Assembly (NCBI GenBank): GCA_032718475.1
Contig: JAUCBJ010008239.1
Coordinates: 1-51,529 of the forward strand
Direction of reading: 5' to 3'
DNA length: 51,529 bases
Origin: Nemertoderma westbladi
Taxonomy: Eukaryota > Animalia > Xenacoelomorpha
This document shows positions 12,572 to 31,794 of this stretch, piece by piece. A program made the translations under genes and the position numbers. The notes under the pieces were generated by a model, which searched no databases, was not told the origin of the DNA, and saw only the letters and a program-made list of their open reading frames with translations. How positions within the stretch are numbered: position 1 is the first letter of the stretch; each line of letters opens with the position of its first letter.

Positions 12572-14726
12572 GTAAGTTTCTCGTCCATGGAACAATTACG
12601 GTAAGTTTCTCGCCCATGGAACAATTACGGTAAGTCCCTGTAACAATTAAGGTGAGTCCCTCGCCCTTGTCCGGAACAATTACGGTAAGTTCCTCGTGTC
12701 TGGAACAATTACGGTGAGTTCCTGTAACAATTACTTTAAGTTCCTCCTCCCTGGAACAATTACGGTAAGTTCCTCGTGAACCTCGTGTCTGGAACAATTT
12801 TGTTAAGTTTCTGGAACAATTACAGTAAGTTTCTGGAACAATTTCGTTAAGTTTCTGGAACAATTACGGTAAGTTCCACGTGCTTGGAACAATTACTGTA
12901 AGTCCCTCGTGTCTGGAACACTTACGGTAAGTTTCTGGAACAATTTCGTTAAGTTTCTGGAACAATTACTGTAAGTCCCTGCGTGAACCGCGTGTCTGGA
13001 ACAATTTCTTTAAGTTTCTGGAACAATTACGGTAAGTTCCTCGTGTCTGGAACAATTACGGTAAGTTCCTCGTGTCTGGAACAATTTCGTTAAGTTCCTG
13101 TAACAATTACGGTAAGTTCCTCCTCCCTGGAACAATTACGGTAAGTTCCTCGTGTCTGGAACAATTACGGTAAGTTCCTCGTGTCTGGAACAATTTCGTT
13201 AAGTTCCTGGAACAATTTCGTTAAGTTCCTGGAACAATTTCGTTAAGTTCCTGTAACAATTACGGTAAGTTCCTCGTCCCTGGAACAATTACGGTAAGTT
13301 CCTCGTGTCTGGAACAATTACGGTAAGTTCCTCGTGTCTGGAACAATTACGGTAAGTTCCTCGTGTCTGGAACAATTACGGTAAGTTCCTCGTGTCTGGA
13401 ACAATTACGGTAAGTTCGTCGTTCATGGAACAAATACGGTAAATCCCTCATCCATGGAACAATTACGGTAAGTTCCTCGTGTCTGGAACAATTACTGTAA
13501 GTTCCTGTAACAATTACGGTAAGTTCCTCCTCCCTGGAACAATTACGGTAAGTTCCTCGTGTCTGGAACAATTACGGTAAGTTCCTCGTGTCTGGAACAA
13601 TTTCGTTAAGTTCCTGGAACAATTTCGTTAAGTTCCTGGAACAATTTCGTTAAGTTCCTGGAACAATTTCGTTAAGTTCCTGTAACAATTACGGTAAGTT
13701 CCTCGTCCCTGGAACAATTACGGTAAGTTCCTCGTGTCTGGAACAATTACGGTAAGTTCCTCGTGTCTGGAACAATTACGGTAAGTTCCTCGTGTCTGGA
13801 ACAATTACGGTAAGTTCCTCGTGTCTGGAACAATTACGGTAAGTTCGTCGTTCATGGAACAAATACGGTAAATCCCTCATCCATGGAACAATTACGGTAA
13901 GTTCCTCGTGTCTGGAACAATTACTGTAAGTTCCTCGTGTCTGGAACAATTACGGTAAGTTCCTCGTGTCTGGAACAATTACGGTAAGTTCCTCGTGTCT
14001 GGAACAATTACGGTAAGTTCCTCGTGTCTGGAACAATTACGGTAAGTTCCTGGAACAATTTCGTTAAGTTCCTGTAACAATTACGGTAAGTTCCTCCTCC
14101 CTGGAACAATTACGGTAAGTTCCTCGTGTCTGGAACAATTACGGTAAGTTCCTCGTGTCTGGAACAATTACGGTAAGTTCCTCGTGTCTGGAACAATTAC
14201 GGTAAGTTCGTCGTTCATGGAACAAATACGGTAAATCCCTCATCCATGGAACAATTACGGTCAGTTCCGGTAATAATTACAGTAAGTTCCTCGTCCGGGA
14301 ATAATTACGGTAAGTTCCTGGAACAATTACAGTAAGTTCCTCGTGTCTGGAACAATTACGGTAAGTTCCGGTAACAATTACTGTAAGTTCCTCGTGTCTG
14401 GAACAATTACGGTAAGTTCCTCGTGTCTGGAACAATTTCGTTAAGTTCCTGGAACAATTTCGTTAAGTTCCTGTAACAATTACGGTAAGTTCCTCCTCCC
14501 TGGAACAATTACGGTAAGTTCCTCGTGTCTGGAACAATTACGGTAAGTTCCTCGTGTCTGGAACAATTACGGTAAGTTCCTCGTGTCTGGAACAATTACG
14601 GTAAGTTCCTCGTGTCTGGAACAATTACGGTAAGTTCGTCGTTCATGGAACAAATACGGTAAATCCCTCATCCATGGAACAATTACGGTCAGTTCCGGTA
14701 ATAATTACAGTAAGTTCCTCGTACGG
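12561..14726. repeat. Satellite of 29-bp and 22-bp units with higher-order structure (left part)
   Basis: Units GGAACAATTACGGTAAGTTCCTCGTGTCT and GGAACAATTTCGTTAAGTTCCT, roughly 80 units, each with an internal dyad GGAAC...GTTCC. Confidence 0.95.
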
Positions 14727-16646
14727 TAAATTGGAGAGATACGCCTATTCCTACTATCGGAAGAGACGGTAACAATACCTGCAATATCCTACTGTAAAGT
14801 TTGTAAATCAAATCATAAATCCGACCTTCTCACCAAAACAGTAAACCCCAAGTAAGCGAATATATTGCAGTATCGATCTCTTTTAACCGGTGAGGCAGAA
14901 AACAGTCTACGAGCAGACAAACTTCGATAAAACAAAATCCCGCGCAGCGAATCCTAAAATCAGGCTGACTCACTGACGGACTAAGAGGCTCGTATACTTT
15001 GCCGCGGTGTGATTTATATATGGTTGGGCAAAGGGACGCTAGCTAGGTACAGAGCAGATTTGGAGATGTCTAACTAGCGAGCAAAGTGCAGTAAGGACGA
15101 AAGTTAATTTTATATATTTCGAGGTGTAAATAATTTCTAACGCACGTGTGTTAATTCTGAACGGTCAAAGCAGTTTTGCTCCTTCACATATATAATTACT
15201 GGGTATGGTGTGCATTTTACGAATATTCTAATTTGTAACTTGTAGGTCCAATACTCACGAATGATAAGGTTCCTTCCCCTCTTGCGTATTTCCAGGACTC
15301 AAATTCAGGCATAAGGTTAATACTACGCCCAGAATTCGGCAATTTTAGGTACCAGGTCCCTGATACTAAGAAGAGATGTGTTAGTTTACTACTGTAGGCG
15401 TACGGGTACTAATAGCTATCCTGGCTCCTATCTAGAATTTTAGTCACCCAGGTAGTCCAGGTAACTTCCTATTAGGGCGTTGGCGGGGACACGGTAGATG
15501 TTAGTATATCCCTGATAGCCTCAATTTATTTGCGCCTAGCGTAAACTGCCCTACCGCCTGAACGGTACAATCCCAATTCAGGTGAAAACACAGCAACCCC
15601 TTTAGCCTACAAGTTCTGATGTAACGGACACCGTTGTACGGTAAATAGTCGCACACACACCTGTACTTAGCAAGAGTTAAGCGTACAGTTTGCTGCACCC
15701 TAACCAATGTGTATGCCTTGTACCGGTGTGCCTACGTCCTATCTGCGTACTAGTATCTGCTCTCTCTCTCTCTCCCCCCCGTAGGAATATGAAGGTCTAC
15801 TGCGGTTTTTCCTGAATCAAGACAGTACAGTCCCTATGATGTAATTTTAGGCTTGCAGCGTGTCACTACGTCTACCTTTGATCTTTTGGTCTTACACTTA
15901 GGTAGCAAGGATCGAACGCTGTCTAACCTTTCAGGCGATGGGCGAATAACTAGATGGTATTGCGGGTTGTCTCCCGTCTACATTCCCGTGATGTTCCCGT
16001 TCATTGCTGCGGCCCGATCTCTAGCTGGCCATCCTGTCCCTGAGTTTGTTCACCGTAGTGAAACCATATTAAAACAGATAGAAAAGGGCTGAGATGTGAC
16101 TAGTATTTCTGACTTTATTACAAAACATATAATAACTATTATACAATAAACAATGTAATCTGAAATAAGACAGAAAGCGAATGATGGAAATTGCAGTAGT
16201 GATTGAGAACTAATGAACGAATCGCACCTTTATATACTAAATTTGTGCCGCAATCAATCGAGAAAATTCTCGATTGTTCTATGGGTTCTAACAAGGTTTT
16301 AAAGATAGCTTATTGGTCCAGCTAATATATAACTTGCACGACATTGGTTACAATCAAATAACTACAGCCTTATTGGTACAGACAAATGCAATTAATTTGT
16401 AGCGGTTAATTTAAATGAGTTGAAATTCTGCACAAAAAATAATTCGCACTTACTAGGATTTGAACTCGATACCTACTATACTTATAATTTCCAACGCTCT
16501 ACCAACTGAGCTACTGAACCACTTGACCGATAGATGCATAATAGATAGAACCAATACTAATGAGAACTCAAAGCAATCTTTACAAAGTTAATTCGAATAA
16601 AATAAAATTTTGAAAATCCACGGCATTTAGGGAATATAATTCTATA
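14727..16646 (-). repeat. 3' LTR (1,920 bp)
   Basis: Direct repeat of 29774-31693 at a constant offset of 15,047. One substitution seen (15640 G vs 30687 A). Confidence 0.95.
16434..16520 (-). ncRNA. tRNA-derived Pol III-like unit inside the 3' LTR (U3)
   Basis: GGTTCAG-TAGCTCAGTTGGTAGAGC (A box/D arm)...GAGTTCAAATCC (B box)...TTTTTT terminator. Cloverleaf stems other than the D arm are poor. Confidence 0.55.
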
Positions 16647-16654
16647 CCGCTCCA
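16647..16654 (-). other. Short polypurine-tract candidate
   Basis: TGGAGCGG directly abuts the 3' LTR on the element strand. Confidence 0.5.
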
Positions 16655-17504
16655 TGAAAACAGGATATTATCGTGCATAAATATACGGTTTTCACCAATA
16701 ATCAATCAAACTATAGAATACTTAGGGCGTACTTACATATTTACAATTAAGTTTCAAACAATACTTCCTTTCTACGTAATGATTCGATACAAAATAATTA
16801 CAAATTCAAACTTTACGTATTTAAGGCTTTACTAAGTAAGTACAATATAAATCTAAATTAAATTCACCAATATAAATCTATTGCATCTCAAATATTGCAT
16901 AAATTCAAACAATTACAAATACAAATAAATGAAAACAATAAGAAAGGCTCGCGAGTCTTCCATCTACTATTGCATCTCAAATATTGCATAAATTCAAGTA
17001 ATTACAAATACTTTCGTACCTAAATGTAGATTGCATAAGTTTGGAATAATTACAAATATGAGTCTTTCTGAGCACAAAATTTTCTGTCTATAAAACTTTC
17101 TATTTCACTGTAAATACAAATACTGCTTATAAGATATAAATTGCATAATATTCGGAACAATATAAATTGCATAAGTTCAGAATAATATAAATTGCATAAG
17201 TTCGAAATAATCACGTAAATATAAGATATAAATTCTTACTAAATATAAATCTTACTAAATATAAGTCTTTACTTAAATATTAATATAAACTGCATAAGTT
17301 TAGAATAATATAAACCTTTGCATCTCAAATATGAAACATAAATCTTTCAAATATAAGTTCCTTCTAAATATAAACTTTCTAAATTTCATAAATTCGGAAC
17401 AATACAAATTGTATGAGTTTTCTAAATATAAAACATATAATTCAAAATAAATCACAAATCATAAGAAAGGCTCACGAGTCTTCCGTCCACCCTTGCCCTC
17501 CTTT

Positions 17505-18968
17505 TCATCGCTTAGTTGATCGAGCCCTGCCGCGTCCTCGAAAACTGCGCACAGGTGACTTTGCTCGCGATATGGGACTTGTGGGGCGAGTCACTGGTTT
17601 ACTTGGGACGTTGAGAGACGGTGCGACTATTTCCTCACAAATTCGTCTATTTGGCATCCCAAAACCTCGACCAATTCCTCGTGACCGATCAGTCGTCACT
17701 ACAGTTGGTAGAACGTCTGGGAACGCGTGAGAAGCGGACGACGCAGACCCAAGAGTAGCTTGCGCCCCCTGTTGATCAGCTGGTGTATGTCCCGATCCTC
17801 CTACTGGTTCTCTTGGAAGTGATACCGTATCCCGAGTAACTCGAATAGTCGGCTCAACTCCCTTGCGTTCTTCCACATTAATAATTTTCTTCAATTGTTG
17901 GCCCACTTTCTGGACCCGTATGATCCTACCCTGCCCGTCCTCCCGAGGGTGACGTGCAGACGGCGCAACCGGAGTGGCTGATATATTCGTCGCCTCTAGG
18001 ACCTCTTCTTCCTCGAATACGCTCGCTCGTATACGTTTATGGTAAAACGCGGCTCGGTACGCCCATGCGACGGTTAACCAAGCTCCTTTATTCCGCTTTT
18101 CGGTTCGGAAACGATCAAATTCACCATACGTGATACGATTTACGACTTTCTGAAAATTCCACGTGTTTTTGTTATCCGGGTGAATCTGTAACAGATACTC
18201 GCGCACCACTCGAAATCCGCTGTCGTGGGGCAAAATATCGACAACCTCGATAAGTTCGTCATACTGGGGCATAGCGGAGATATATCCTTCCGACATCATC
18301 GTCTGGGGATTTACCGCCCAAAATCCGAGATGCGCTCTCATCGGAAACCGTCTTCTTTGTGCCGATACATGTTCGTCGGCCAAATCTTCCCACTCATCAA
18401 ATAACTTCCTCACGAGTTTTACAGATTCATGTTCATAAGGTATGTCTCTTAGTTGGCATTCAGATGCTCGATGTCCCTTTATATTGCAGTAAGTACATTG
18501 AGCCATAAATCTCCAGCAAGTATAAAAGGTATGAGACCCTTGATCCCCACACCATCCACAGATTAGCTGAGTCGTAGTAATGTGCTTTCCACTGCACTTT
18601 GCCATATGATGTCCAGCGACGCCACATTTACTACACATCGTATTAGCAGGGTACCACACTCGTTCGTATATAAGATCTCCAATCGGTCGAGCGCTTCCTC
18701 CCATACTATAATCGTAATCATCTGGGTCTATGGGTTGGTAGGTTTCTGAAGGTTGTATACAAACTATAGCATCTGTTGCTTCAAGTTGTCGAATCTCCGT
18801 CTGAGATTTCTTCGGGAGGTTCCTTTCTATCTCAAGAAGTTCCTCTAAAGGATCGTCGGCGATCGTAGTAGTTACGTTGAAATCATCACCGAGGTGACCG
18901 ATAGGCGCGCGCGTCTGCCGTGATTCATCCGTAATTTCCACAATACGTTCTCCTTCATAAGGTAACAT
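17505..18968 (-). CDS. Retrotransposon accessory ORF3: triple CCHC zinc-knuckle protein with RG-rich tail (487 aa from first ATG)
   Basis: CSKCGVAGHHMAKC, CGWCGDQGSHTFYTC, CTYCNIKGHRASEC; C-terminal RSRGIGRG and RGRGRAR. No signal peptide or TM segment apparent. The frame is open back to about 19016. Confidence 0.8.
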   Translation of the reverse strand: MLPYEGERIVEITDESRQTRAPIGHLGDDFNVTTTIADDPLEELLEIERNLPKKSQTEIRQLEATDAIVCIQPSETYQPIDPDDYDYSMGGSARPIGDLIYERVWYPANTMCSKCGVAGHHMAKCSGKHITTTQLICGWCGDQGSHTFYTCWRFMAQCTYCNIKGHRASECQLRDIPYEHESVKLVRKLFDEWEDLADEHVSAQRRRFPMRAHLGFWAVNPQTMMSEGYISAMPQYDELIEVVDILPHDSGFRVVREYLLQIHPDNKNTWNFQKVVNRITYGEFDRFRTEKRNKGAWLTVAWAYRAAFYHKRIRASVFEEEEVLEATNISATPVAPSARHPREDGQGRIIRVQKVGQQLKKIINVEERKGVEPTIRVTRDTVSLPREPVGGSGHTPADQQGAQATLGSASSASHAFPDVLPTVVTTDRSRGIGRGFGMPNRRICEEIVAPSLNVPSKPVTRPTSPISRAKSPVRSFRGRGRARSTKR

Positions 18969-19621
18969 AGTTGTTGATGGTTCGAACACCTCGCCAATAT
19001 CGGTTCGGGATTTTCCTTATTCAAACGCATCGGAATCGCATTTCGTTGTTCGCGCATACAAGAACCGCATTGATAATAAAGTTTATAAACTGAAAATGCT
19101 TCTTTGGTTTCTCTATCGTCCCCTCGAGTTCGTCTGTAAAGATGCATTCCATCGAATTCATCACGTACCGCGGGCATAGGTTCGTGCGCCTTTAGGTATT
19201 GCATGGTATGATACAAACGACTAATTTCAGTATCGGGGTCTTCGCTAATGTCTCCCGTATCACACAAAGCATCGTACGGGTAAAGTTCGTTGAAGGTTTG
19301 GCGCAAACTTTCGATTCTTTCGTTCAATGCGTTTTGCCTTCTCTTTAATACATTCGAGTCATATTTAGTTCTCGCGAGTTTCGCTGTACTTTCCGATAAT
19401 TCTTTTATACCGAATATAGTATAATCCTTGGCTCCAAATCTTTCGAATGGCGCTGCTGCCTCCTCTTGGATATCATATCCCCACCTCGGCTCTCCTTGTA
19501 TCCCTTTCTCCATAATTAGAGGTGTAGTTACATAATCATTACTACTAGAGGGAATACAACAGAGTTTGTAGTTAGTTGTGAGGAGACGTGAGAGTTTCGT
19601 CTGCCCTTTGGGCTTCGACAA
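18872..19621 (-). CDS. Retrotransposon accessory ORF2, unknown function (first ATG 19513, 213 aa)
   Basis: Intact ORF with a helical/coiled segment (RRQNALNERIESLRQTF) and a possible CxxC...CxxH zinc site (CGSC...CSNH). Overlaps ORF3. Confidence 0.7.
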   Translation of the reverse strand: MSKPKGQTKLSRLLTTNYKLCCIPSSSNDYVTTPLIMEKGIQGEPRWGYDIQEEAAAPFERFGAKDYTIFGIKELSESTAKLARTKYDSNVLKRRQNALNERIESLRQTFNELYPYDALCDTGDISEDPDTEISRLYHTMQYLKAHEPMPAVRDEFDGMHLYRRTRGDDRETKEAFSVYKLYYQCGSCMREQRNAIPMRLNKENPEPILARCSNHQQLCYLMKENVLWKLRMNHGRRARLSVTSVMIST

Positions 19622-20174
19622 CGCTCTAACCTCCTACCCATAGCCTAAGATCTAGGGTTTCTTTAATGACACGCTGCTTCTTATCTAAAAATTTTTGCCG
19701 AAATAAAAACGAATTTGGGCTAAACTGGCTGTGAGTCTAAAATACTCACTTTTTGATCCCAAACTATTATCAGAAAATAAGCAGTCAAGAATTAGTAATA
19801 AATATAGGGGAGTCTATTTTGACGTAACTTATTGAAACAAGACCGTGTAAAATTTTAATTAAAATTTTAAGAAAGGCTCGCAAGTCTTCCTCTCTTGTTT
19901 CTCTAATTTTAAGTTCCACCCGACTGTACCCTGAAATCTATTCACTGGAGAAAATTTTAAAAATTTTTCAAATCCAAATGGATTGTCTAAAATTTCGAAA
20001 ATGTCTCAATATTGTGAGTTCCAAGTAGAATTCCATTTCTTATACCTACAAATCCCGCTCCTATGTGACACATAAGGGTACTACCCTCAATGTTCACATA
20101 TAAAGACAATGGAATTCTACCGCTGTCCTTAATACGGTGTACAGGTACGTGGAAATCTATTTGTAAACTCCTAA

Positions 20175-23100
20175 TTATTTACTAGTATTAGGTGGAGATT
20201 TGTAGTCTCCAGACTCGTTACGAGTCTCTTCAAGAAGTACGAGACGTTGAGTCGGTCTGTCTACTGTACGACCGTCAATTGTCCGTACTGTCACAGTTCT
20301 TGTCACTCCATCCATAGATGGATGTGTGGCTAAAATGACACCTGTTATCCAGAAGCGTCTTTTTAGATTCACTTCTGCCAACAGCACGTGATCTCCCGGC
20401 TTTAATGCGCGGGTGTTATTGTACCAGTTTGTTCTGGCAGAAATAGAGGGCAAATAATGGTTTTGCCATATTTCCCAGAATTTGTTAGCTAGTAATTGCG
20501 TGATTTTCCACGCTTTTCTCCCGTAACTATCGCTTTCCATTGGAATGGAAAGCGGCGTCAAAGTCGTCGGTGCCTGCATTAGCAGGTGTGCCGGTGTCAA
20601 AGCAAACTGGGATTGTTTGTCATCGGGTACTAATACTATTGGTCTAGTATTTAGTATTGCCTCGATTTCAACAAACAATGTTGTCAGTTGGTCGTCTGTT
20701 AATATGTGGTTTACTGGAATGACCTTTGCCATGGCTGTCTTTATAGATCTAATCAATCTCTCCCAGACTCCGCCTCTCCAAGGACTATCTGGAGGATTGA
20801 ACTTCCAAACAATCTTGTGAGGTTGCAGTTCGTTTGAGATTTGATCATGATCTAATTTCTTAAAGGCTCTAGCAATCTCATTCCGAGCACCAACAAAGTT
20901 TGTCCCTTGGTCTGAGTACAAGCATTTTACTAATCCGCGTCTAGCGATAAATCGCCGTAGTGCTAGTATAAACGCGTTGGTGGAAAGATCCATCACACGT
21001 TCAATGTGAACTGCCCTACTGGACATACATGTGAAAATCAGTCCCCAGCGTTTTACTAGTATACGTCCACGTTTAGTATGTATGGGACCAAAGCAATCAA
21101 TTCCAGTCTCTGTAAAAGGTGGTCTGAATGCTTGAAGTCGTGCTTGTGGTAGTTCACTCATTTCTTGGGTACCTATTCTAGAATGTACCTTTTTACAAAT
21201 AATACACGTACGTGTCACTGAACTTAATGCTTTACTGGGTCTAATTAATACAAATCTAGTACGTAAGTAGGAAAGACAGTGGTGTCTTCCAGCGTGTTTC
21301 AGATGTAAATGTGCGTCCAGTATCATTGCACGTTGTAGTTCGTGGTGTTGCGGTATTATTATTGGGTACCTAAAGTTCGTGTTAAAGTCAATGTTTTGAA
21401 GCCGAGATTTATGACAAATTAAGCCATTATAAATAATCGGACTCCAACTCAGTATCGGTGACGACTTGATTGGTTGACCTTGATTTATAGATGTGAATTC
21501 GCGCGCGAAATATCGCAGTTGGTAATGGCGAATTAATTTAATCTCACACCTGTCAATCTCAGCCAATGTAAGTCGACGTGTGAAGTCACGTTTGCCTTTA
21601 ACGTATTGTACAAAACGTACAATCCACGCTAATTTTCGGCAAGCGTTTGACCAAGAATCTGTTAGGTTTACAATACGGTCGACATAAGTATTTGTGACGT
21701 CATCAGGTAAGTCAATGGAGAACTTGGAAGGTTTCGAATTACTAGAAGGGCCCACGGGTCCGCCGGTAAGTATTCCCTTGTTGACTGTTGATCCGTCCGG
21801 GTCTACAAGTAATTTGTCCTTCTTTGTCTTCTTACCTTGATTGTCGGTACTTTGTAAGTCGATCGTTAATGGTGGTTTGAACTCTATGGGGTCAGCAGGT
21901 TTCGGTAAACTTATTTTTCTGCCGACATTAATCCCAGGTCTCACCACAGGTTGTAAGTTCGGTATGTCTCTTGAGCGCAAAGTAACACCTGTATTTACAT
22001 TAGCGTAGGTACTACCCACATCTGCAATACATGAGGTTTCACCATGCTTATGGTTGCCCAAGTGTGTCAAAATTGGTAGTTTGTCAATACAAGGCCGCTC
22101 CAATAGGGAAACTGCGGCTTTATTGTTAGTCAATACATTACTAGTGTCTAGTCGACTGTCTAGTAGTGTGTCTGGCGATACGTCTGGTAACGTATCTGGT
22201 TGTTTGTCACTAGAAGGCCGCTCCAATAGGGAAACTGCGGCTTTACTGTTTGTCAGTGTGTTACTAGCGTCTGGTGGGACATTTTGTGATATGTCTGGCA
22301 AAATGTCTGGTTGGCTGTCTAGTAACATGTCTGGTTGACCGTCTGGCGATATGTCTGGTGTAGAAAGGCTCGCAAGTCTTCCTCTCTTGACCTTTGAAGT
22401 TATATCCTTCCATTTCGCCTTCGGTTTTTTCTTGAGTTTCGCCGCCGTCGTCCTTTTCTTTGTCTTCCCCTTTTTTGGTTTCTTGATTTCGGCGTCCTTA
22501 GGAATGGTGTTGGACTTGTTGTCGTATAACGGAGGCCAATCTTGTGTCGATTTCTGCAAGAACTGGGGTCCGTGTTGCCAAAACTCTTTGTTCTCCGGTT
22601 TACAGAATTCCTCAGGCATCATTCCTCGCGACGCAATATCAGCTGGGTTTTGTGGTCCGGGACAATGTCGCCAATCCTCTTTTATCGAACGGTCTAGAAT
22701 CTCTGCGCGACGGTTAGCTACGAATGTCTTGAATTCGAGTGTGTCGTTGTTTATGTAAAATAAAACCAACGTCGCGTCAGTCCAATAAAATATCTGTAAA
22801 CTCGACTGTAGTTCTGTCTGTATGAGGTTCACGATGGTGGTTGACAGGGTCGCGGCTTGTAGCTCGGCTCGTGGTGTCGTCATATACTTAGTAGGCATGG
22901 TCTTAGCCTTGGAAGTAATGAGCGAAACATCGAACTCGTCTGATTCTACTTGTCTGCGCAAATACGCTGCCACACCAAACCCGTTGTCACTGGCGTCAGA
23001 AAAACAGTGTAGTTCCAAGTTGTCAGGAAATGTACTCTGTAATGGAAAGTAAACCCTGGGTATGGAATAATCCTCTAACGAAGACAATTCCGCCTCCCAG

Positions 23101-26100
23101 GTCTTCCATAAGTCCACTTGATCTGATGAGATCGGCTCGTCCCACGTTAGTCCATCCTTCCATATACTGCGCATATAAATGCGGGCTTGCAGTATTACTG
23201 GACTGATGAATCCTAACGGGTCGAACAATCGGCTCAACTTTGACAAGCATGATCTCTTGGTCAGTGTGTTTCCTTGACTGTCCAGTCTCACCTTCACTCG
23301 AAAGTTGTCTGTGTTTGGGTCCCAAAAGAGCCCCAACACCTTAGTCGTCGGTAGTGGTTCGAACTCTAGGTCTATGTCACCACCTCCACGCTCAGTAGTT
23401 CCGAATGAGTCAACTAATTCGGCACTGTTTGAGGCGAATTTGGTGAGGTTAAAACCTCCGCTCGCCAAGCAGTCCCGTAATTGATGTGCTACTGTTGTAG
23501 CACGTTCTACTGTGTCGCAACTCTGTAGTCCGTCATCAACGTAAAAGTCACGTTCTACAATTCTAATTATCTCTGGGTCATACAGATGTTTCTGATCTCT
23601 AGCGGCTTGCTTCAAGGCGTACATCGTACAATTCGGGCTGTCTCTGGCACCGAAAACGCGAACTTGCATTTGGTAAGTCGCTGGTGGTAGACTTAAGTCC
23701 CCTTCCGGATACCAGAGAAACCGCAAACTGTCTCTGTCTCGCTCTAACGCTTTCACTTGGTGAAACATCGCTTCAACGTCGCAAGTAAAGGCTACTTGAC
23801 GCTGACGGAAGCGCATAATCACCCCCATAAGATAATTATTCATGTTCGGTCCATCCATCAACTCACTATTGAGGGACATTCCCTCAAACAGAGCCGCACA
23901 GTCATTGACTACGCGTACTTTATCTGGTTTGTCGGGATGTCTCACATAGTGATGTGGCAAGTAGTACGTCTGGTCTGTCACTCGCTCCGGGTTAGTCATT
24001 CGGATAGCGTATCCCTTCGTCAAATACGTCTCCATCTGAGTGTTGTACTGCAGATGGGCTTTCTCGTCCTTTAATAGACGTTGTCGGATTGAGTGTAGAC
24101 GTCTTAAAGCCAGTGGGTAGTTATTTATAAGTTTAGGACTTTGGCTACGCCATAACATACCCACCTCGTAATGTCCGTCCTCCGTCTGTCGGATAGTATC
24201 CTCCATGATCTTTAGAGATTGTTTCTCCTGTTCCGACATACAAGGGTCGTAGCTACCAGGTTCAGCTGTATCTTGTTCTAACCACCTGATAGTCTTCTCC
24301 GTTAATTCTTTGTCCAAGGCGGCTTGTTCCAACTGATGAATTTTCAACGCGTCATCGTCGATATCGATGGGCACTGTTGAAGTTATTGGGGTAGGTAGAC
24401 TCGCAAGCCTATCATCTGTCGTCGATGGAATCTCTAGCTGATTCGTCTTCTCCCCAAGTTCTAAACTCACCTTGTGGATTAGCTGCTCCTTGTGACTTAT
24501 CATACTAGTTACACGTCTGTGATGTTTTGTCGACTGTAGCGTAGTATGGTTCACGTCGTGTGAAAAGGAATGAATTGAGTTTGTAGTCAATAAACTACAT
24601 GTACTCTGTACGTCGTCTTCCTCGTCACTTACGTCCAGTGTGCGCACAGGCGCTCGAGTATACCACCCTATCGGCGTTCTGCAGGCGTATGCGTTTCCTG
24701 CTACAACTGCCGATGGTCTGGTTTCCCACACCTGATGTAGGTTGAATTGGTCCGTCCCGATCAGCATTGCTACCGATCTATAATTGACAGGACATTCGGG
24801 TACACCAAGGTGTCTGAAATACTTACGGTCCTCCAGAGATTGTTCCGGCACTGGACCTAGTAGGTTACTAAAGTCCTTCGTGGCCGCAAAGGTTAGATCT
24901 CTAAAGGGCAACAAAGACCTCTCCCTCTCGCTGTGTTGCGATTTTGGAAGAAGAGAGTCTAAGTCCAACTTAACTCGTGTCACTGGTATTGCACGCTGTC
25001 CGTGCATACTACTTACTGTATAACTGACGTGCTTACCTTGTCTAAGATCTGTTACGACGTCAGCTATCTTTTCATCTACGTAACTGTGAGATGAGGCTGA
25101 GTCTAGAATCGCGTAAATCCTCTTACTCCCTTTTGTGCCAGTAACTTTAATCGGGATTACACTGAATCCCTTCAGTTGGTCAGTGGTCAGGAGCGCGATT
25201 GACGGTTGTTCGTCTCCATTTGAATATTCGTCGTCTTCTGATTCTTCGTCCGACGATCCGGATTGTTCTGAAAAGCAATCCTCTATATGGGTCACGAAAG
25301 TCGGAGTTGTTTTCGATTCCCGTTTTCGGTAAGCCGCATCACATCTCGCTGCTGCTTCCGGGTGTTCCCTGGCGAAGCGTTTCGTCGGCGTGTGGCTGTC
25401 TGTGTGGAGCAGACCGTCGTGGTTGCGTCCACAGGATGGACAAGTGTCGGTATTTGGGCAATCCTTACGGACGTGTCCGTGTTGCGTACACCGCCAACAA
25501 GAGTCCAGTGGCCGTATCTGCAGCCGTCGTTCTTCTGAGTTCAACTCGCGAAATTGTCGACAACCCCGTAACTTGTGACCAATATACCGCTTACCTAAAT
25601 GTTCGCAGTATTGGCAGCCGTTGAAGTCGGCGCTGAGTTGCTGTCTCGTCTGTTTTGTCCCAATGGGCGCAGATACTCTATTACCGTCTGAGAATTGTCG
25701 TGATTCCGTCGGTGTGGCGTAAGTGGCCGTCTTTGTGGATGTTGTCTGGGGTTTTTGTCGGTTGGAGGATGGCAGTGTGATCCCTTCTGCCACGATGTGC
25801 TGGTCGGTATAGTTAGATCGAGTTTCTACTACCGCCTCCCTGGATATTAAAAGGTACACATCTTCTAATTTCAGGAATCCTCCTCGCTCCTCTCGCTGAT
25901 ATTCGACCTTCCTCCACTCCCGACGAAGTCGATGGTGGAGTCGTCCTATTATCTTTAATAAAACGGTAGGGGTATTTCCGTAATCAAGTTGTCCAATTGA
26001 TCTTAAGGTAGTGATAGCGTTCTTGATTTCGTCAGCTAGTTTTAGTAAGTCGACGGGTTTAGTGATAGCCCCTCCCTTACAGAGTTCTTCTATTACTGAC

Positions 26101-28961
26101 CTGGCCATACTCACTGTACCTCCGTATATCGAAGTCAAACGATCGTACGCTAGTTCGAAAGCGTCTGGTACACCGACGAAAGTCTCCGCCAAACGTTTAG
26201 GTTCTCCTGACAACGTTTGGAGCAGGTAATTGAACTTCTCCCGTGATGTAAAGGCGCACACGGCGATCTGGGATTCGATATAGTCTACGAAGGTATGCCA
26301 GTGTTTTGAGCTACCGGAGAACTTCGGTGGTTGTTGTACCGGCAATCCCTGTCTGGCTGCGAATTTCGCTATCTCCTCGGCAACGTTCAGAGTTTCGCGT
26401 CCTTGGTTGGTAGTCTGGTTGATGTTCTCCCTTCTAGGCGCTTTTCCCTGATACGATGTGGGGTTTGAAGGTACCGGTCTTTGTGGTCCCTTCGGGTGTC
26501 TATTGTGTTCGAATTCGGAATTTCTCGAACTGTCGGTGTAACCTTCCTCCAGACGTTCCTCAATCCGGGCCAACTTGTTGACAATGTCGGCGAACTGTTG
26601 CGCACCGATCGCGCCCGCTGGTGGTAACGCCTTCTGTGTCGGTGTATTCTGTGGTGGATTATCTGCAAAAGAGTTGTCTGAACGCTCGCGTTTATATTCA
26701 TCGGCCGCCCCCGTTCTAAATACCTCGCGTTTCGGGTAATCCGATTCGCTCGAAGTACTACTATCATCTGGATATGGTGGTCGACGTGCTCGCGTTCGTT
26801 GCGTCGTTCGAATTCTAACGGCTCGTTTCGGAACATCGTCCACTGATCTCCGTTGTTCGGTAGGCTCACAAGTCTTCCTCGAAGTCGTAGATTGCGATGT
26901 AAACTGGTTGAACGGTCGCGTCTCCACTGTTCTCCGTTGTTCGGTAGGCTCACAAGTCTTCCTCGAAGTCGTAGATTGCGATGTAAACTGGTTGAACGGT
27001 CGCGTCTCCACTGTTCTCCGTTGTTCGGTAGGCTCACAAGTCTTCCTCGAAGTCGTAGATTGCGATGTAAACTGAACCGGTGGGCGAATGACAGCATTTG
27101 AAACCGCTGGCCTTGTTGGTCGAAACGTCATTGGGTAAGCGTAATGTGTAACGGGTTTTGGTGTCAAAGGTGGACTCACCTGTTTTGTCGTCAGTAGTGC
27201 AGGTCCGACTAATAAACTACTACGATCTGTAATCGGTGGGTTACTTACCTTGACTCTCGGAATAGGCGACGACGTTGCTCTTGGCGGTATAAACTCGTTC
27301 GGAATAACAAACCTGTGTTCCGTCGCACCATGGATAGGAGAAATATCACTACTACCCGCAATCGAAACAGGTTCCTTAGTCGTAACCGGTGCAAACATAT
27401 GAGTTACCTGTGGGAATCGTTGACACACGTCTTTTACTAATTGTCGTTCCCGTCCGGGTGCTCCTACGCTTCCTTCCTTCTTCCGTTCCTGAATTTGGCG
27501 ATGTCTTACCTCTAACTGGTCCAAATCATGTCCGTCGCGAGATCTCATCGATCGATCGCGGGCTAGAAGATCCAGATTTTCCTTAGTTTCGGCTAATTCT
27601 CTCGCCCTCTTCTCAAGTTCGAAACGAAGTTTAACTTCCTTTTCTCGTTGTTCCGTTTGTTGTTGTTGCGCCTCGAACTCTGCTTGTCGTATCGCTTGTT
27701 GGGCTTTTATTTGCCGTGTCTTCATCTCGACTCTGGCTTCCGAAACTACTCTTTGTCGCTCTAACTCTGCCGCAGCCGTTTGTCGCTCTAACTCTGCCGC
27801 AGCCGTTTGTCGCTCTAACTCTGCCGCAGCCGTTTGTCGCTCTAACTCGGCCGCTGCCGCTGCCGTTTGTCGCTCTAACTCGGCCGCTGCCGCTGCCGTT
27901 TGTCGCTCTAACTCGGCTGTTGCCGTTCGTTGCGCTAACTCGGCCGCTGCCGCTTGTTGGGCAATGTCCAACTCTAACCTTTCCATTTCGGCCGCTTCGA
28001 GTTCGGCTTGTTCCTGCAGATGAGAGATTCTCGCTACATTCGCAACACGTATTTTCTCTTCCTCTACTGCTGTTTGTATCATTAGAAGTTGAGCTTGTTC
28101 TTCTATCTCGTGTTGCTGTCTGTAGAACTGCTGCTGTTGTCGAGCAACTTCTGACGTGACTATACTTCCTTCGCAGATTTCGCTACGAATACTTACCAAT
28201 GATTGATTTAGTATTCCCGGTGCCGATTCGATTTGTGCGAATGAAGTTTCCCTCGTGTATTCCGGCACGGTTTCCAAATCGCCGACGTCTTCGCCGCACA
28301 TGCGTAAGTGGTCCGTCAGATGTTTCAATTGTCCATCCAGTCGGTACAATTCCTGTTCTTCCTCGGGTTGTAATAATTCGTCCGAAACTGACTCACCTAA
28401 CAACTGGTCCGCTTGTTCCTGTTGTATCTGTCTAATCGTCGACTTAAACTGAATCAGTTTCTCTCTAGTGATCATTAGTTTCTCGAGGATTCTAAGTTGA
28501 GTATCCATGTCCTGTCTCTGTCTAGCTAGATCTTGTAGGCCAACTAGATTATCTACGGACTTATATACTTTACTCTGTACTCTAACCTGGAGGGTGTAGA
28601 ACTCGAATCGAGACATCGGAGCGGTCAACCCGTCTAATATGCGTTGGCCTTCTCCAATACTCCTGGTTATATGCGCCATGTATCCTCCGACGCTTCTAAC
28701 CACACTTTCTGTGCTTCCTGCTGAACTTACCAATTCCGTTTCCCTGTATCTAGGTTGCGGAACAGTTAGAAAGTCCTCGGTCCTGCCGTCGCCTCGTACT
28801 ACGGCATCCGGTACTCCCGTTGGATGTACTGGTGACGCACACGGTGTAGGTTCGGTAGGCTCGCGAGTCTTCCCCTGTGGTTCTTCCGCTGCTGACTTAT
28901 CCGCGTCACATGAGTCATAGTCGGTTTGTGTATTTTTCGTATAGTCTTGTTTGTCACTCAT
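20175..28961 (-). CDS. gag-pol: BEL/Pao Gag-Pol polyprotein, 2,928 aa (Gag-PR-RT-RNaseH-IN)
   Basis: Gag PKFSGxxxxWxxF (DUF1759-type); three BEL knuckles (CQYC..H..C, CWRCTQHGHVRKDC, CPSCGRNHDGLLH); protease AILDSAS; RT YLPHH, CDVEAMFHQV, FYVDD; RNase H FSDAS, PRAELQAA, WTD, NPADIASRG; integrase HHCC, GIDCFGP, SDQGTNF, GGVWERLI. Confidence 0.97.
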   Translation of the reverse strand: MSDKQDYTKNTQTDYDSCDADKSAAEEPQGKTREPTEPTPCASPVHPTGVPDAVVRGDGRTEDFLTVPQPRYRETELVSSAGSTESVVRSVGGYMAHITRSIGEGQRILDGLTAPMSRFEFYTLQVRVQSKVYKSVDNLVGLQDLARQRQDMDTQLRILEKLMITREKLIQFKSTIRQIQQEQADQLLGESVSDELLQPEEEQELYRLDGQLKHLTDHLRMCGEDVGDLETVPEYTRETSFAQIESAPGILNQSLVSIRSEICEGSIVTSEVARQQQQFYRQQHEIEEQAQLLMIQTAVEEEKIRVANVARISHLQEQAELEAAEMERLELDIAQQAAAAELAQRTATAELERQTAAAAAELERQTAAAAAELERQTAAAELERQTAAAELERQTAAAELERQRVVSEARVEMKTRQIKAQQAIRQAEFEAQQQQTEQREKEVKLRFELEKRARELAETKENLDLLARDRSMRSRDGHDLDQLEVRHRQIQERKKEGSVGAPGRERQLVKDVCQRFPQVTHMFAPVTTKEPVSIAGSSDISPIHGATEHRFVIPNEFIPPRATSSPIPRVKVSNPPITDRSSLLVGPALLTTKQVSPPLTPKPVTHYAYPMTFRPTRPAVSNAVIRPPVQFTSQSTTSRKTCEPTEQRRTVETRPFNQFTSQSTTSRKTCEPTEQRRTVETRPFNQFTSQSTTSRKTCEPTEQRRSVDDVPKRAVRIRTTQRTRARRPPYPDDSSTSSESDYPKREVFRTGAADEYKRERSDNSFADNPPQNTPTQKALPPAGAIGAQQFADIVNKLARIEERLEEGYTDSSRNSEFEHNRHPKGPQRPVPSNPTSYQGKAPRRENINQTTNQGRETLNVAEEIAKFAARQGLPVQQPPKFSGSSKHWHTFVDYIESQIAVCAFTSREKFNYLLQTLSGEPKRLAETFVGVPDAFELAYDRLTSIYGGTVSMARSVIEELCKGGAITKPVDLLKLADEIKNAITTLRSIGQLDYGNTPTVLLKIIGRLHHRLRREWRKVEYQREERGGFLKLEDVYLLISREAVVETRSNYTDQHIVAEGITLPSSNRQKPQTTSTKTATYATPTESRQFSDGNRVSAPIGTKQTRQQLSADFNGCQYCEHLGKRYIGHKLRGCRQFRELNSEERRLQIRPLDSCWRCTQHGHVRKDCPNTDTCPSCGRNHDGLLHTDSHTPTKRFAREHPEAAARCDAAYRKRESKTTPTFVTHIEDCFSEQSGSSDEESEDDEYSNGDEQPSIALLTTDQLKGFSVIPIKVTGTKGSKRIYAILDSASSHSYVDEKIADVVTDLRQGKHVSYTVSSMHGQRAIPVTRVKLDLDSLLPKSQHSERERSLLPFRDLTFAATKDFSNLLGPVPEQSLEDRKYFRHLGVPECPVNYRSVAMLIGTDQFNLHQVWETRPSAVVAGNAYACRTPIGWYTRAPVRTLDVSDEEDDVQSTCSLLTTNSIHSFSHDVNHTTLQSTKHHRRVTSMISHKEQLIHKVSLELGEKTNQLEIPSTTDDRLASLPTPITSTVPIDIDDDALKIHQLEQAALDKELTEKTIRWLEQDTAEPGSYDPCMSEQEKQSLKIMEDTIRQTEDGHYEVGMLWRSQSPKLINNYPLALRRLHSIRQRLLKDEKAHLQYNTQMETYLTKGYAIRMTNPERVTDQTYYLPHHYVRHPDKPDKVRVVNDCAALFEGMSLNSELMDGPNMNNYLMGVIMRFRQRQVAFTCDVEAMFHQVKALERDRDSLRFLWYPEGDLSLPPATYQMQVRVFGARDSPNCTMYALKQAARDQKHLYDPEIIRIVERDFYVDDGLQSCDTVERATTVAHQLRDCLASGGFNLTKFASNSAELVDSFGTTERGGGDIDLEFEPLPTTKVLGLFWDPNTDNFRVKVRLDSQGNTLTKRSCLSKLSRLFDPLGFISPVILQARIYMRSIWKDGLTWDEPISSDQVDLWKTWEAELSSLEDYSIPRVYFPLQSTFPDNLELHCFSDASDNGFGVAAYLRRQVESDEFDVSLITSKAKTMPTKYMTTPRAELQAATLSTTIVNLIQTELQSSLQIFYWTDATLVLFYINNDTLEFKTFVANRRAEILDRSIKEDWRHCPGPQNPADIASRGMMPEEFCKPENKEFWQHGPQFLQKSTQDWPPLYDNKSNTIPKDAEIKKPKKGKTKKRTTAAKLKKKPKAKWKDITSKVKRGRLASLSTPDISPDGQPDMLLDSQPDILPDISQNVPPDASNTLTNSKAAVSLLERPSSDKQPDTLPDVSPDTLLDSRLDTSNVLTNNKAAVSLLERPCIDKLPILTHLGNHKHGETSCIADVGSTYANVNTGVTLRSRDIPNLQPVVRPGINVGRKISLPKPADPIEFKPPLTIDLQSTDNQGKKTKKDKLLVDPDGSTVNKGILTGGPVGPSSNSKPSKFSIDLPDDVTNTYVDRIVNLTDSWSNACRKLAWIVRFVQYVKGKRDFTRRLTLAEIDRCEIKLIRHYQLRYFAREFTSINQGQPIKSSPILSWSPIIYNGLICHKSRLQNIDFNTNFRYPIIIPQHHELQRAMILDAHLHLKHAGRHHCLSYLRTRFVLIRPSKALSSVTRTCIICKKVHSRIGTQEMSELPQARLQAFRPPFTETGIDCFGPIHTKRGRILVKRWGLIFTCMSSRAVHIERVMDLSTNAFILALRRFIARRGLVKCLYSDQGTNFVGARNEIARAFKKLDHDQISNELQPHKIVWKFNPPDSPWRGGVWERLIRSIKTAMAKVIPVNHILTDDQLTTLFVEIEAILNTRPIVLVPDDKQSQFALTPAHLLMQAPTTLTPLSIPMESDSYGRKAWKITQLLANKFWEIWQNHYLPSISARTNWYNNTRALKPGDHVLLAEVNLKRRFWITGVILATHPSMDGVTRTVTVRTIDGRTVDRPTQRLVLLEETRNESGDYKSPPNTSK

Positions 28962-29043
28962 TTCGGTAGTTGTAAGTCAAGTGAAGTGAGTGTCAAAGTA
29001 TCGAGTTTACCGTATTTGTATAAAACGGTACTAATTACAGTCA

Positions 29044-29168
29044 TATAAAATTAGCCTACCGGCCGATTTTATAGCAGATGGATAAAATTAGCCTAAACGG
29101 CCAATTTTACAGCAAATAAATGTCACGGAATAAGTATATAATAAAATTAGCCTAGCGGCCAATTTTAT
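29044..29168 (-). other. Three tandem hairpins in the 5' leader (packaging/dimerisation signal candidate)
   Basis: Three copies of ATAAAATTAGCC-(4-5 nt)-GGCCRATTTTA just upstream of the gag ATG. Confidence 0.55.
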
Positions 29169-29762
29169 AACAAATAAATCAGATAACGATATGCGTTATC
29201 AAAAGGTAAATTAAATACAATAATACGGACTAATTCAGCAATGAACAAAGAAATCGTACGGAATGCATAAATACTTGAGACAGTGGAACCCACAATAATT
29301 TTAACTAAATACGGTAATGCCTAACTTATTTATGCAACTTTTCGAACTCACCCACTCCAATAATTCTCCAGAAAAACAGATTCCCAGATACAAACCGAAC
29401 GTGAACCTTTCCGTTTTTTAACGTTGCGGACGAAACGCGATTTTCCCAACCAAAGTTGTTGAGTTATCTATCTCCCAAACTTGCTAAACACGGTCTTGCT
29501 CCCGTTACAGTCTAGAAAATGAGTTCTGAATCCTGAAAAACAAAAGAGTTAGGTTTTACTTTACGAAAAATTTTGTACCGGTACAATATGGTATTTAAAC
29601 CCTTTTAAACACCGGTATTCAATTCCAAAAAATATTTTACACGCGGTTCAAATCAAATTTTATTTCAAAAAATTAGCACTTAGCTAATCAAATACAAAAT
29701 TTTACCTCAAAATACAAAATTTTCAAATAACTTTAGTCCTACCGAACCGTAGTTCAGTAAAA

Positions 29763-29773
29763 CATATTCCTAC
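29763..29773 (-). other. Primer-binding-site position, non-tRNA type (GTAGGAATATG)
   Basis: Abuts the 5' LTR, lacks TGG, and is the exact reverse complement of LTR positions 30828-30838. Confidence 0.6.
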
Positions 29774-31254
29774 TAAATTGGAGAGATACGCCTATTCCTA
29801 CTATCGGAAGAGACGGTAACAATACCTGCAATATCCTACTGTAAAGTTTGTAAATCAAATCATAAATCCGACCTTCTCACCAAAACAGTAAACCCCAAGT
29901 AAGCGAATATATTGCAGTATCGATCTCTTTTAACCGGTGAGGCAGAAAACAGTCTACGAGCAGACAAACTTCGATAAAACAAAATCCCGCGCAGCGAATC
30001 CTAAAATCAGGCTGACTCACTGACGGACTAAGAGGCTCGTATACTTTGCCGCGGTGTGATTTATATATGGTTGGGCAAAGGGACGCTAGCTAGGTACAGA
30101 GCAGATTTGGAGATGTCTAACTAGCGAGCAAAGTGCAGTAAGGACGAAAGTTAATTTTATATATTTCGAGGTGTAAATAATTTCTAACGCACGTGTGTTA
30201 ATTCTGAACGGTCAAAGCAGTTTTGCTCCTTCACATATATAATTACTGGGTATGGTGTGCATTTTACGAATATTCTAATTTGTAACTTGTAGGTCCAATA
30301 CTCACGAATGATAAGGTTCCTTCCCCTCTTGCGTATTTCCAGGACTCAAATTCAGGCATAAGGTTAATACTACGCCCAGAATTCGGCAATTTTAGGTACC
30401 AGGTCCCTGATACTAAGAAGAGATGTGTTAGTTTACTACTGTAGGCGTACGGGTACTAATAGCTATCCTGGCTCCTATCTAGAATTTTAGTCACCCAGGT
30501 AGTCCAGGTAACTTCCTATTAGGGCGTTGGCGGGGACACGGTAGATGTTAGTATATCCCTGATAGCCTCAATTTATTTGCGCCTAGCGTAAACTGCCCTA
30601 CCGCCTGAACGGTACAATCCCAATTCAGGTGAAAACACAGCAACCCCTTTAGCCTACAAGTTCTGATGTAACGGACACCGTTGTACAGTAAATAGTCGCA
30701 CACACACCTGTACTTAGCAAGAGTTAAGCGTACAGTTTGCTGCACCCTAACCAATGTGTATGCCTTGTACCGGTGTGCCTACGTCCTATCTGCGTACTAG
30801 TATCTGCTCTCTCTCTCTCTCCCCCCCGTAGGAATATGAAGGTCTACTGCGGTTTTTCCTGAATCAAGACAGTACAGTCCCTATGATGTAATTTTAGGCT
30901 TGCAGCGTGTCACTACGTCTACCTTTGATCTTTTGGTCTTACACTTAGGTAGCAAGGATCGAACGCTGTCTAACCTTTCAGGCGATGGGCGAATAACTAG
31001 ATGGTATTGCGGGTTGTCTCCCGTCTACATTCCCGTGATGTTCCCGTTCATTGCTGCGGCCCGATCTCTAGCTGGCCATCCTGTCCCTGAGTTTGTTCAC
31101 CGTAGTGAAACCATATTAAAACAGATAGAAAAGGGCTGAGATGTGACTAGTATTTCTGACTTTATTACAAAACATATAATAACTATTATACAATAAACAA
31201 TGTAATCTGAAATAAGACAGAAAGCGAATGATGGAAATTGCAGTAGTGATTGAG

Positions 31255-31423
31255 AACTAATGAACGAATCGCACCTTTATATACTAAATTTGTGCCGCAA
31301 TCAATCGAGAAAATTCTCGATTGTTCTATGGGTTCTAACAAGGTTTTAAAGATAGCTTATTGGTCCAGCTAATATATAACTTGCACGACATTGGTTACAA
31401 TCAAATAACTACAGCCTTATTGG
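31255..31423 (-). promoter_or_regulatory. Candidate Pol II promoter in the LTR: three CCAAT boxes, TATA box, Inr
   Basis: CCAAT near 31422, 31393 and 31363, TATATAAAG at 31283-31275, TTAGTT at 31260-31255. An AATAAA lies about 95 nt downstream. Confidence 0.5.
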
Positions 31424-31480
31424 TACAGACAAATGCAATTAATTTGTAGCGGTTAATTTAAATGAGTTGAAATTCTGCAC

Positions 31481-31567
31481 AAAAAATAATTCGCACTTAC
31501 TAGGATTTGAACTCGATACCTACTATACTTATAATTTCCAACGCTCTACCAACTGAGCTACTGAACC
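31481..31567 (-). ncRNA. tRNA-derived Pol III-like unit inside the 5' LTR (U3)
   Basis: Same sequence as 16434-16520: A box, B box, T6. Confidence 0.55.
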
Positions 31568-31693
31568 ACTTGACCGATAGATGCATAATAGATAGAACCA
31601 ATACTAATGAGAACTCAAAGCAATCTTTACAAAGTTAATTCGAATAAAATAAAATTTTGAAAATCCACGGCATTTAGGGAATATAATTCTATA

Positions 31694-31794
31694 TACGGGA
31701 ATAATTACGGTAAGTTCCTGGAACAATTACAGTAAGTTCCTCGTCCCTGGAATAATTACGGTAAGTTTCTGAAACAATTACAGTAAGTTTCTGG
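31694..31794. repeat. Continuation of the 29/22-bp satellite after the retrotransposon
   Basis: Same GGAACAATTACRGTAAGTT units resume immediately after the TSD. Confidence 0.9.

Follow-up and report, generated by a model that had tools for sequence, protein, structure and literature searches.

Which functions might a BEL/Pao retrotransposon acquire with two extra genes that occupy the place of env and encode nothing like an envelope protein? The question is raised by a 51,529-nt stretch of Nemertoderma westbladi DNA (contig JAUCBJ010008239.1; the whole stretch is referred to as the window), whose minus strand carries an intact BEL/Pao long terminal repeat (LTR) retrotransposon of 16,967 bp (14727..31693) lying within a 29-bp satellite array. 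The element is a young, multi-copy retrotransposon, and its two open reading frames (ORFs) between pol and the 3′ LTR, ORF2 and ORF3, are integral to this family, among whose copies purifying selection acts on both. Both genes are very probably real and translated. ORF3 probably binds RNA, to judge from its three zinc knuckles and from ESM Atlas look-alikes scoring below 0.9, and we tentatively propose that through these knuckles it binds a motif repeated in the element's own RNA, favouring export, stability or packaging.

ORF2 (18872..19513, minus strand) encodes 213 residues within an open frame of 253 codons (18872-19633) with its ATG at 19513, and ORF3 (17505..18968, minus strand) encodes 487 residues within an open frame of 503 codons from stop to stop (17505-19016), with its ATG at 18968. 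The two overlap by 97 nt in different frames, and 1,000 shuffled versions of these 2.1 kb contain no open frame that exceeds 179 codons. The search for features of an env-like glycoprotein revealed no transmembrane anchor by hydropathy (the maximum over 19 residues is 0.75 in ORF3 and 0.07 in ORF2) and no fusogen match in Pfam or PDB, and neither N-terminus is hydrophobic, as judged by hydropathy rather than by a dedicated signal-peptide predictor. Frames and hydropathy thus bear out the initial annotation, made from the sequence, which had described two intact overlapping ORFs in the env position without signal peptide or transmembrane helix.

The ORF3 protein consists of an acidic N-terminus, an array of three CCHC knuckles (codons 112-171; 18456..18635, minus strand), a conserved middle domain and a low-complexity basic tail. 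The knuckles map to residues 112-125 (CX2CX4HX4C), 137-151 (CX2CX5HX4C) and 158-171 (CX2CX4HX4C), a tandem arrangement like that of CNBP/Air/ZCCHC7-type proteins, and the Pfam model zf-CCHC reaches E 0.003, below its curated cut-off. They are, as had been proposed, distinct from those of Gag, which carries three knuckles of its own, the last one ending in H. Simple duplication of Gag is not evident as the source of ORF3, because ORF3 matches neither the element's own gag-pol nor any of 120 related Gag-Pol proteins. The supposed RG tail turns out to be simply a basic one, with a net charge of +11 over the last 47 residues and four RG pairs, none of them extended to RGG. ORF2 encodes a soluble orphan with two predicted helices and a Cys/His cluster at codons 149-183 (C149-x2-C152 ... 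C176-x2-H179-x3-C183), so that the residues of the CxxC..CxxH pattern noted earlier are present and could form a putative zinc site. Pfam gives no match between ORF2 and a DNA-binding family, and a helix-loop-helix drawn by eye over residues 53-111 was dropped for lack of Pfam support.

The evidence that these are family genes comes from five public sequencing runs that contain the stretch (X1-X5; X1 and X4 represent one sample and X3 is labelled 'DNA?'), in which depth is summed contig depth and not copy number. In X1 and X2, depth over ORF2 and ORF3 is 28,000-54,000 compared with 31,000-86,000 over pol, which is of the same order and shows that members of this many-copy family ordinarily carry both genes; coverage across them is continuous in X1, X2 and X4. 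Variants in 17440-19720, read as pooled contig differences with the 40 best-supported of 84 variable sites listed, are predominantly silent. Outside the overlap, synonymous changes account for 9 of 9 in ORF2 (p 3e-5) and 20 of 25 in ORF3 (p 7e-7), where about 31% would be expected at the observed transition rate, and the same variants read in the other two frames are synonymous at only 4 of 24 and 3 of 24 sites. The middle domain of ORF3 (codons 172-330) is the most constrained part, at 11 of 12. None of the 12 indels listed, out of 56 across the element, lies in a coding frame (chance 3e-7), nor does any of the three listed in the 17440-19720 region (chance 0.002). An assembly frameshift between ORF2 and ORF3 was rejected, as four runs list no indel there. 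A comparison among copies of the kind the initial annotation had proposed (the ratio of nonsynonymous to synonymous change) therefore yields a synonymous excess in both genes, and the two outcomes it named as fatal, decay of the ORFs or origin in a separate nested element, both fail for the family in view of the selection, indels and depth and of a region without inverted ends, shared DNA, own termini or target-site duplication (TSD) of a nested element.

Variation among copies also includes larger rearrangements. Three diverged contigs of low depth, in X1, X2 and X4, match only in pieces, namely knuckles 2-3 (18433-18560, about 83%), codons 325-345 and 29 nt past the ORF3 stop, and hence a diverged version that retains the knuckles exists. 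Loose contig ends cluster at the start of ORF3 (18961..18967, minus strand), at 18961 in X1, X2, X3 and X4 and at 18967 in X3 and X5; at the former, in four runs, ORF2 continues into unlike sequence, and at the latter, in two runs, unlike sequence enters ORF3. Owing to this clustering, ORF2 and ORF3 look like separable modules swapped between subfamilies. One X3 record of 1,887 nt matches 18961-19454 only, and low-depth internal deletions are found in some copies (joints 17640-19628, 18078-19571 and 18946-19354). Depth in X3 at 22671-24176 and 17149-18654 rises to about 10 times that of gag, integrase and ORF2, which suggests a second, mosaic subfamily having these parts alone.

Outside the family the genes have no recognizable counterpart in the collections searched. 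A scan of metagenome contigs, of which the best 80 of 553 were taken and 79 BEL/Pao loci retained (Pol identity 34-44%), gives no match to ORF2 and only weak knuckle matches to ORF3, with E 0.03 or worse, and the suggested look for homologues linked to BEL pol thus finds none among these 79 relatives. The end of integrase can be placed in 64 of the 79, and in 18 of these the 3′ LTR starts 119-450 nt downstream, compared with 3,529 nt here. ORF2 and ORF3 are therefore read as a gain of this lineage, since the relatives are unmatched and 18 have no room between integrase and 3′ LTR; the genes are retained within their own family and not seen in these distant relatives. Of seven long knuckle-bearing ORFs downstream of integrase in relatives other than L017 and L077, five prove to be Gag-Pol, belonging either to a permuted contig or to the copy that follows, and two, in L004 and L066, have no match and are located at or past the 3′ LTR end. 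Neither protein matches any of 5.8 billion proteins of near length (for ORF3, at E 1e-3), longer and shorter forms being outside that search, and there is no match for ORF3 in viral and metagenome contigs, for ORF2 in viral contigs, or for either among PDB sequences (best E 0.72). In the ESM Atlas the ORF3 core resembles CCHC, DUF8363, AIR2 and HEXBP clusters, all of CCHC type (0.77-0.88; a lead only), and nothing reliable is found for ORF2, for which GCM (0.79) and FLYWCH (0.77) are at noise level. The suggested AlphaFold and Foldseek route is uninformative, as single-sequence models are too poor to use (predicted local distance difference test scores of 39 and 40) and Foldseek with the ORF2 model returns nothing under E 2. 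The likeness to CNBP, Air1 and ZCCHC7 put forward earlier accordingly holds for the tandem CCHC array, with no alignment-level match at E 1e-3 and no RGG.

A splice joint offers a route to the expression of ORF2. In X3, position 29352 is joined to 19544, removing a GT..AG intron of 9,807 nt (19545..29351, minus strand) that contains all of gag-pol; depth at the joint is 210.9 versus 200.8 for the unjoined contig, and the short side of the joint measures 30 letters. The splice joins the 5′ leader to a point 31 nt upstream of the ORF2 ATG, and the contexts of donor and acceptor are canonical. As the joint has GT-AG ends on the element strand, it records splicing whether X3 is DNA or RNA. The listings for X1 and X2 do not include this joint, and X5 (RNA by guess, depth below 10) has no listed joint. 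With the acceptor at 19545/19544, ORF2 likely starts at the ATG at 19513 rather than near 19621. The subgenomic spliced RNA that the initial annotation proposed to look for thus has a candidate in this joint to ORF2, whose acceptor is the one at 19545/19544 in place of those foreseen near 19931 and 20046. A strong splice acceptor is also present in the leader at 29533, upstream of the used donor, where a further intron from the LTR is possible, with no joint shown.

The internal region further contains a repeated 17-nt motif, (G)GAAGACTYGYGAGCCT, in eight copies at six independent sites, all on the element strand. The exact 16-nt pattern has 8 internal copies and none in antisense, in the LTRs or in 34,563 flanking bases; a weak antisense match with three mismatches occurs at 24395. 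In the order of transcription, one copy lies near the start of gag (codon 30; 28857..28872), three lie in the 84-nt tandem repeat of gag and count as one site (26862..27045), one lies where the RNase H-integrase linker begins, in a reading phase that differs from the gag copies (22366..22381), one lies between pol and ORF2 within the intron (19874..19889), one directly follows the ORF3 stop (17468..17483) and one is in the 3′ untranslated region (16945..16960). Apart from the motif, a de novo search finds no 12-mer family that occupies at least four distant sites, a number attained in none of 20 shuffles, and there are four matches of 23 nt against 0.00 expected. Because the copies in gag-pol are read in two phases and a further three are non-coding, the motif is conserved as nucleotides. 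The coding copies are in, or border, stretches absent from relatives, and the motif is absent from 79 of 79 related loci. The copy after ORF3 coincides with the 29-nt piece retained by the diverged contigs (joint 17489-17935, short side of 29 letters). Only two positions vary, by C to T changes alone, and G-U pairing of the palindromic core is therefore retained; the core self-pairs at -13.1 kcal/mol in the all-C form and at -0.8 in the double-T form. Six of the eight copies are inside the 9,807-nt intron.

The simplest link between these observations is that the motif is read by one of the two proteins, since the same lineage gained both genes and a dispersed, oriented signal. The spliced RNA would make ORF2, and the ORF3 product could arise from an internal start, by re-initiation or through a second splice that escaped detection. 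ORF3 would then coat motif-bearing unspliced RNA and favour its export, stability or packaging, following the logic of Rev, which acts at the Rev response element (RRE) on unspliced RNA, with ORF2 as a possible zinc-binding helper. Action of ORF3 on RNA is preferred because CCHC knuckles usually bind single strands, the orientation of the motif is fixed and most copies mark unspliced RNA. Chaperone, export factor and silencing suppressor, the three roles offered by the initial annotation, are all candidates on these data.

Several observations weigh against this proposal. The link between the motif and the two genes is one of co-occurrence, in one lineage; no fold can be assigned to ORF2 or ORF3, as no homologue was found and the single-sequence models are unusable. 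The splice joint comes from one run labelled 'DNA?', and the data suggest that this run is RNA by way of its uneven depth and the absence of the joint from X1 and X2. For ORF3, the interval 18960-19200 holds no acceptor with 10 of 15 pyrimidines, no canonical slippery heptamer would allow a -1 frameshift from ORF2 into ORF3, and 14 ATGs lie between the starts of the two genes. Two of the eight motif copies remain in the spliced RNA, the motif alone, in contrast to the RRE, does not fold stably (z -0.3 to -1.2), and a dimeric DNA-binding protein would be just as well served by its palindromic core, which contains two CpGs. Finally, the variant counts are pooled contig differences and not tree-based dN/dS, and the five variable sites in the overlap carry no selection signal in either frame (2 of 5 and 1 of 5).

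The alternative that best survives is unlikely, and places the interaction on DNA: ORF2, with or without ORF3, would bind the palindromic motif and block repressive marks in the manner of VANC, serving anti-silencing or transactivation. The motif is element-specific, dispersed over the body of the element, partly tandem and built on the two-CpG palindrome, and the targets of VANC are, in the accessible part of its description, likewise element-specific and often tandem (PMC5735166). ORF2 brings its Cys/His cluster and two predicted helices to such a role, and the GCM and FLYWCH resemblances stay at the level of noise. The eight copies, however, all share one orientation and none is in the LTR promoter, ORF2 matches no DNA-binding family, and single strands are the usual ligand of CCHC knuckles.

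A second alternative draws in part on how the element primes reverse transcription. Self-comparison defines two 1,920-bp LTRs on the minus strand (3′ LTR, 14727..16646; 5′ LTR, 29774..31693) that differ at 1 of 1,920 bases and whose identity stops at both ends. They end in TA..TA and not TG..CA (14727, 16646, 29774 and 31693), as based on one copy, and are flanked by a clean 5-bp TSD (14722..14726 and 31694-31698); the purine tract preceding the 3′ LTR is short and weak. The primer-binding position (29763..29773, minus strand) lacks the TGG of a tRNA-type start. Instead, the 11 nt that follow the 5′ LTR form the exact complement (11/11) of LTR positions 856-866, a likely self-primer at 30828..30838 on the minus strand with a copy in the 3′ LTR at 15781-15791, a result obtained with 15 of 20,000 simulated LTRs. 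Folding pairs primer site and self-primer across 1,065 nt with a probability of at least 0.9 for 10 of the 11 bases, and the element's own pairing is the best of 10 LTR-site pairings (LTR cropped to 600-1100). Judged from these complementarities, the element likely self-primes. A purine run after the 11-nt complement is able to pair with the end of U5, and the sequence TCATATT, which we take to be initiator-like, overlaps the first bases of the self-primer. LTR positions 110-225 (about 31470-31580 of the window, and also in the 3′ LTR) contain sequences similar to an A box and a B box, with a T run after them, and resemble a degenerate head of a tRNA or short interspersed element; a tRNA in this part of U3 was rejected, ARAGORN and Rfam being negative.

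The same departure is seen in relatives. In each of the nine distinct relatives whose LTR end is defined, the TGG after the LTR is absent, and pairing with the own LTR beats swapped pairings with a permutation p of 0.0004 for ten elements and 0.004 for eight relatives. In seven of the nine (L004, L018, L021, L022, L033, L060 and L066) the complement is of junction type, 11-15 nt across the GT..AG junction of a 76-186-nt intron inside the LTR, with six GTAAG donors, and is matched by 0-1 of 300 shuffles each; in L021 and L033, contiguous pairing alone does not outperform controls. A contiguous complement is found in L072 and L076 (10-11 nt) and in the present element. YAG/T sites in the relatives' LTRs were dropped as transcription starts, as they are splice acceptors. 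A primer site of non-tRNA type thus departs from the profile of the virus taxonomy committee ICTV and is common to the wider group.

Such a long-range fold could need assistance, and ORF3 might be a non-specific nucleic-acid chaperone or second nucleocapsid for dimerisation or for the self-priming fold, with the motif as a signal, for kissing or for packaging, that RNA or Gag reads. This is doubtful. A self-primer that has to pair over 1,065 nt, a motif core that self-pairs in its all-C form and the knuckle as the classic nucleocapsid module speak for it, but Gag retains its three knuckles, the nine relatives have self-priming signatures without the extra genes, and the double-T form of the motif barely self-pairs. 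No better a prospect is that the proteins bind host factors and so oppose the host's small-RNA or RNA-decay pathways, for instance as mimics of Air/ZCCHC adaptors, with the motif unrelated: the ESM Atlas look-alikes include AIR2-like clusters, and the swapping of diverged versions suggested by the module boundary where ORF3 starts is reminiscent of an arms race, whereas the listed variation is purifying and not diversifying, no homology to a host adaptor is shown and the motif is left unexplained. That the genes are functionless passengers, captured as host fragments or by nested insertion, could be argued from the lack of homologues in other BEL/Pao elements and from the internal deletions in some copies, but is very improbable and largely refuted by the synonymous excess, the absence of listed in-frame indels, the dedicated splice, the diverged versions that retain knuckles and the lack of nested ends.

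Extending the preferred reading, in which ORF3 acts on unspliced RNA, to the whole element gives a more speculative picture of a circuit in the style of complex retroviruses, in which a spliced accessory unit and a new triple-knuckle protein reading a 17-nt address eight times over would be combined with exchangeable modules, tRNA-free priming and TA..TA ends.

The remainder of the element is of BEL/Pao type. gag-pol (20175..28961, minus strand) is a single frame of 2,928 residues with intact protease (PR), reverse transcriptase (RT; YVDD), RNase H (RH) and integrase (IN) motifs in the order PR-RT-RH-IN typical of BEL/Pao, and Pfam identifies DUF1759, Peptidase_A17 (E 2.5e-42), Integrase_H2C2 and DUF5641. 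Peptidase_A17 is present in all of the 120 matches listed (the best 120 of 797), and RT/RNase H identity is at most 44% among the 797, of which the named ones are from echinoderms, corals, amphioxus, fish and a snail. Alignment of Pol against viral contigs gives no match. In a tree of 98 sequences, built without reference elements or outgroup, the element occupies a long, weakly supported branch among 97 relatives and takes no firm place in any of the named clades (Sinbad, Suzu, Tas, Bel, Pao, Dan, Flow). The LTR pair and TSD agree with BEL/Pao (Belpaoviridae), and the 18-nt tRNA-Arg/tRNA-Gly primer site of the ICTV profile is missing. Membership rests on Pol, and a tRNA primer site is evidently not general in the family, as TGG is lacking here and in nine of nine relatives. 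Gag-Pol is about 1,000 residues longer than in the 120 relatives (median 1,941), the extra length consisting of an N-terminal extension (26562-28961), coiled-coil-like and with the 84-nt repeats, and of an insertion between RNase H and integrase (about 21600-22360).

The surroundings are rich in repeats. The 29-bp satellite hosting the insertion extends over 12561-14726 and 31698-31795 and adjoins a 38-bp satellite of about 58 copies (32172-34359). A perfect 128-bp inverted repeat without spacer at 34922-35177 is either a foldback element or an assembly artefact, and a non-LTR-type reverse transcriptase fragment lies at 5237-5992 on the plus strand (RVT_1, E 7e-17). Two long, low-complexity open frames on the plus strand, 42143-48394 (2,083 codons) and 36613-38418 (601 codons), have no Pfam match and are probably large host-gene exons; one of them carries about 50 copies of a 7-residue repeat.

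Belpaoviridae are described from animals only, with a size of 4.2-10 kb, LTRs of 0.2-1.2 kb, the genes gag, pol and env and an 18-nt tRNA-Arg/Gly primer site (PMC8742986). The element shares with them its LTRs, PR-RT-RH-IN order, DUF1759, Peptidase_A17, DUF5641, triple Gag knuckle and 5-bp TSD (PMC8742986), and the nearest RT/RNase H among the matches listed, at about 44%, belong to elements of marine animals. It differs in its 17 kb, its 1.92-kb LTR, two non-env genes, lack of a tRNA-type site and TA..TA ends. Beyond the gag-pol(-env) plan it has two non-env genes under selection and a repeated signal specific to its lineage, and its tRNA-free primer site, with those of nine relatives, contradicts the BEL/Pao profile. 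In the accessible parts of five reports env is the sole extra BEL/Pao gene mentioned (PMC3118150, PMC554778, PMC13524379, PMC2774666, PMC8220671), and in those of two others self-priming is not linked to BEL/Pao (PMC3601003, PMC5445492). The literature search found neither a CCHC gene downstream of pol in any BEL/Pao element nor a self-priming BEL/Pao element, Repbase, GyDB, most subscription journals and supplements being outside its range.

Non-env third ORFs are known from LTR elements of rotifers (PMC5408684) and plants (PMC6317226), and as far as the accessible text goes, ORF3 of bdelloid Vesta and Juno and the plant extra ORFs are likewise family-specific, non-envelope genes in the env position. 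In those portions the genes are GDSL esterases, DEDDy exonucleases or unassigned ORFs, the elements are not presented as BEL/Pao, and neither a triple-CCHC protein nor a repeated cis motif appears (PMC5408684, PMC6317226). Self-priming likens the element to Tf1/sushi, Tcn1 and TAR, where, according to the accessible sections, the bases that follow the 5′ LTR form a complement of the own LTR, as 11 nt do here; those elements are Ty3/gypsy or Ty1/copia, and the primer predicted here is 1,065 nt from the LTR end (PMC4600332, PMC6317226).

The findings bear on how LTR retrotransposons pass unspliced RNA through nuclear surveillance or evade silencing without Rev-type genes, and, if specific, ORF3 and the motif would add a protein-RNA (or protein-DNA) pair to those known. 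VANDAL elements are plant DNA transposons. VANC of the Arabidopsis VANDAL, from what is accessible of its description, offers an analogy in that an extra element-encoded protein accompanies short element-specific repeats, here a candidate target (PMC5735166). With CNBP, HEXBP, Air1-Air2 and ZCCHC7, ORF3 shares tandem CCHC knuckles on short linkers, and it differs in having three knuckles only, an unrelated conserved middle domain and no RGG box. CNBP has such a box. In complex retroviruses, the Rev/RRE, Rex/RxRE (Rex response element) and Rem systems combine an accessory protein from spliced RNA, an arginine-rich segment and a cis signal mostly in the gag-pol intron. The RRE is one large folded RNA and Rev is without CCHC knuckles, unlike the short, dispersed motif and the knuckle protein described here, and no sequence kinship is shown. 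By analogy with these systems, the element has a candidate spliced accessory unit, with the splice leading to ORF2, a basic segment and a candidate signal that lies mostly in the gag-pol intron.

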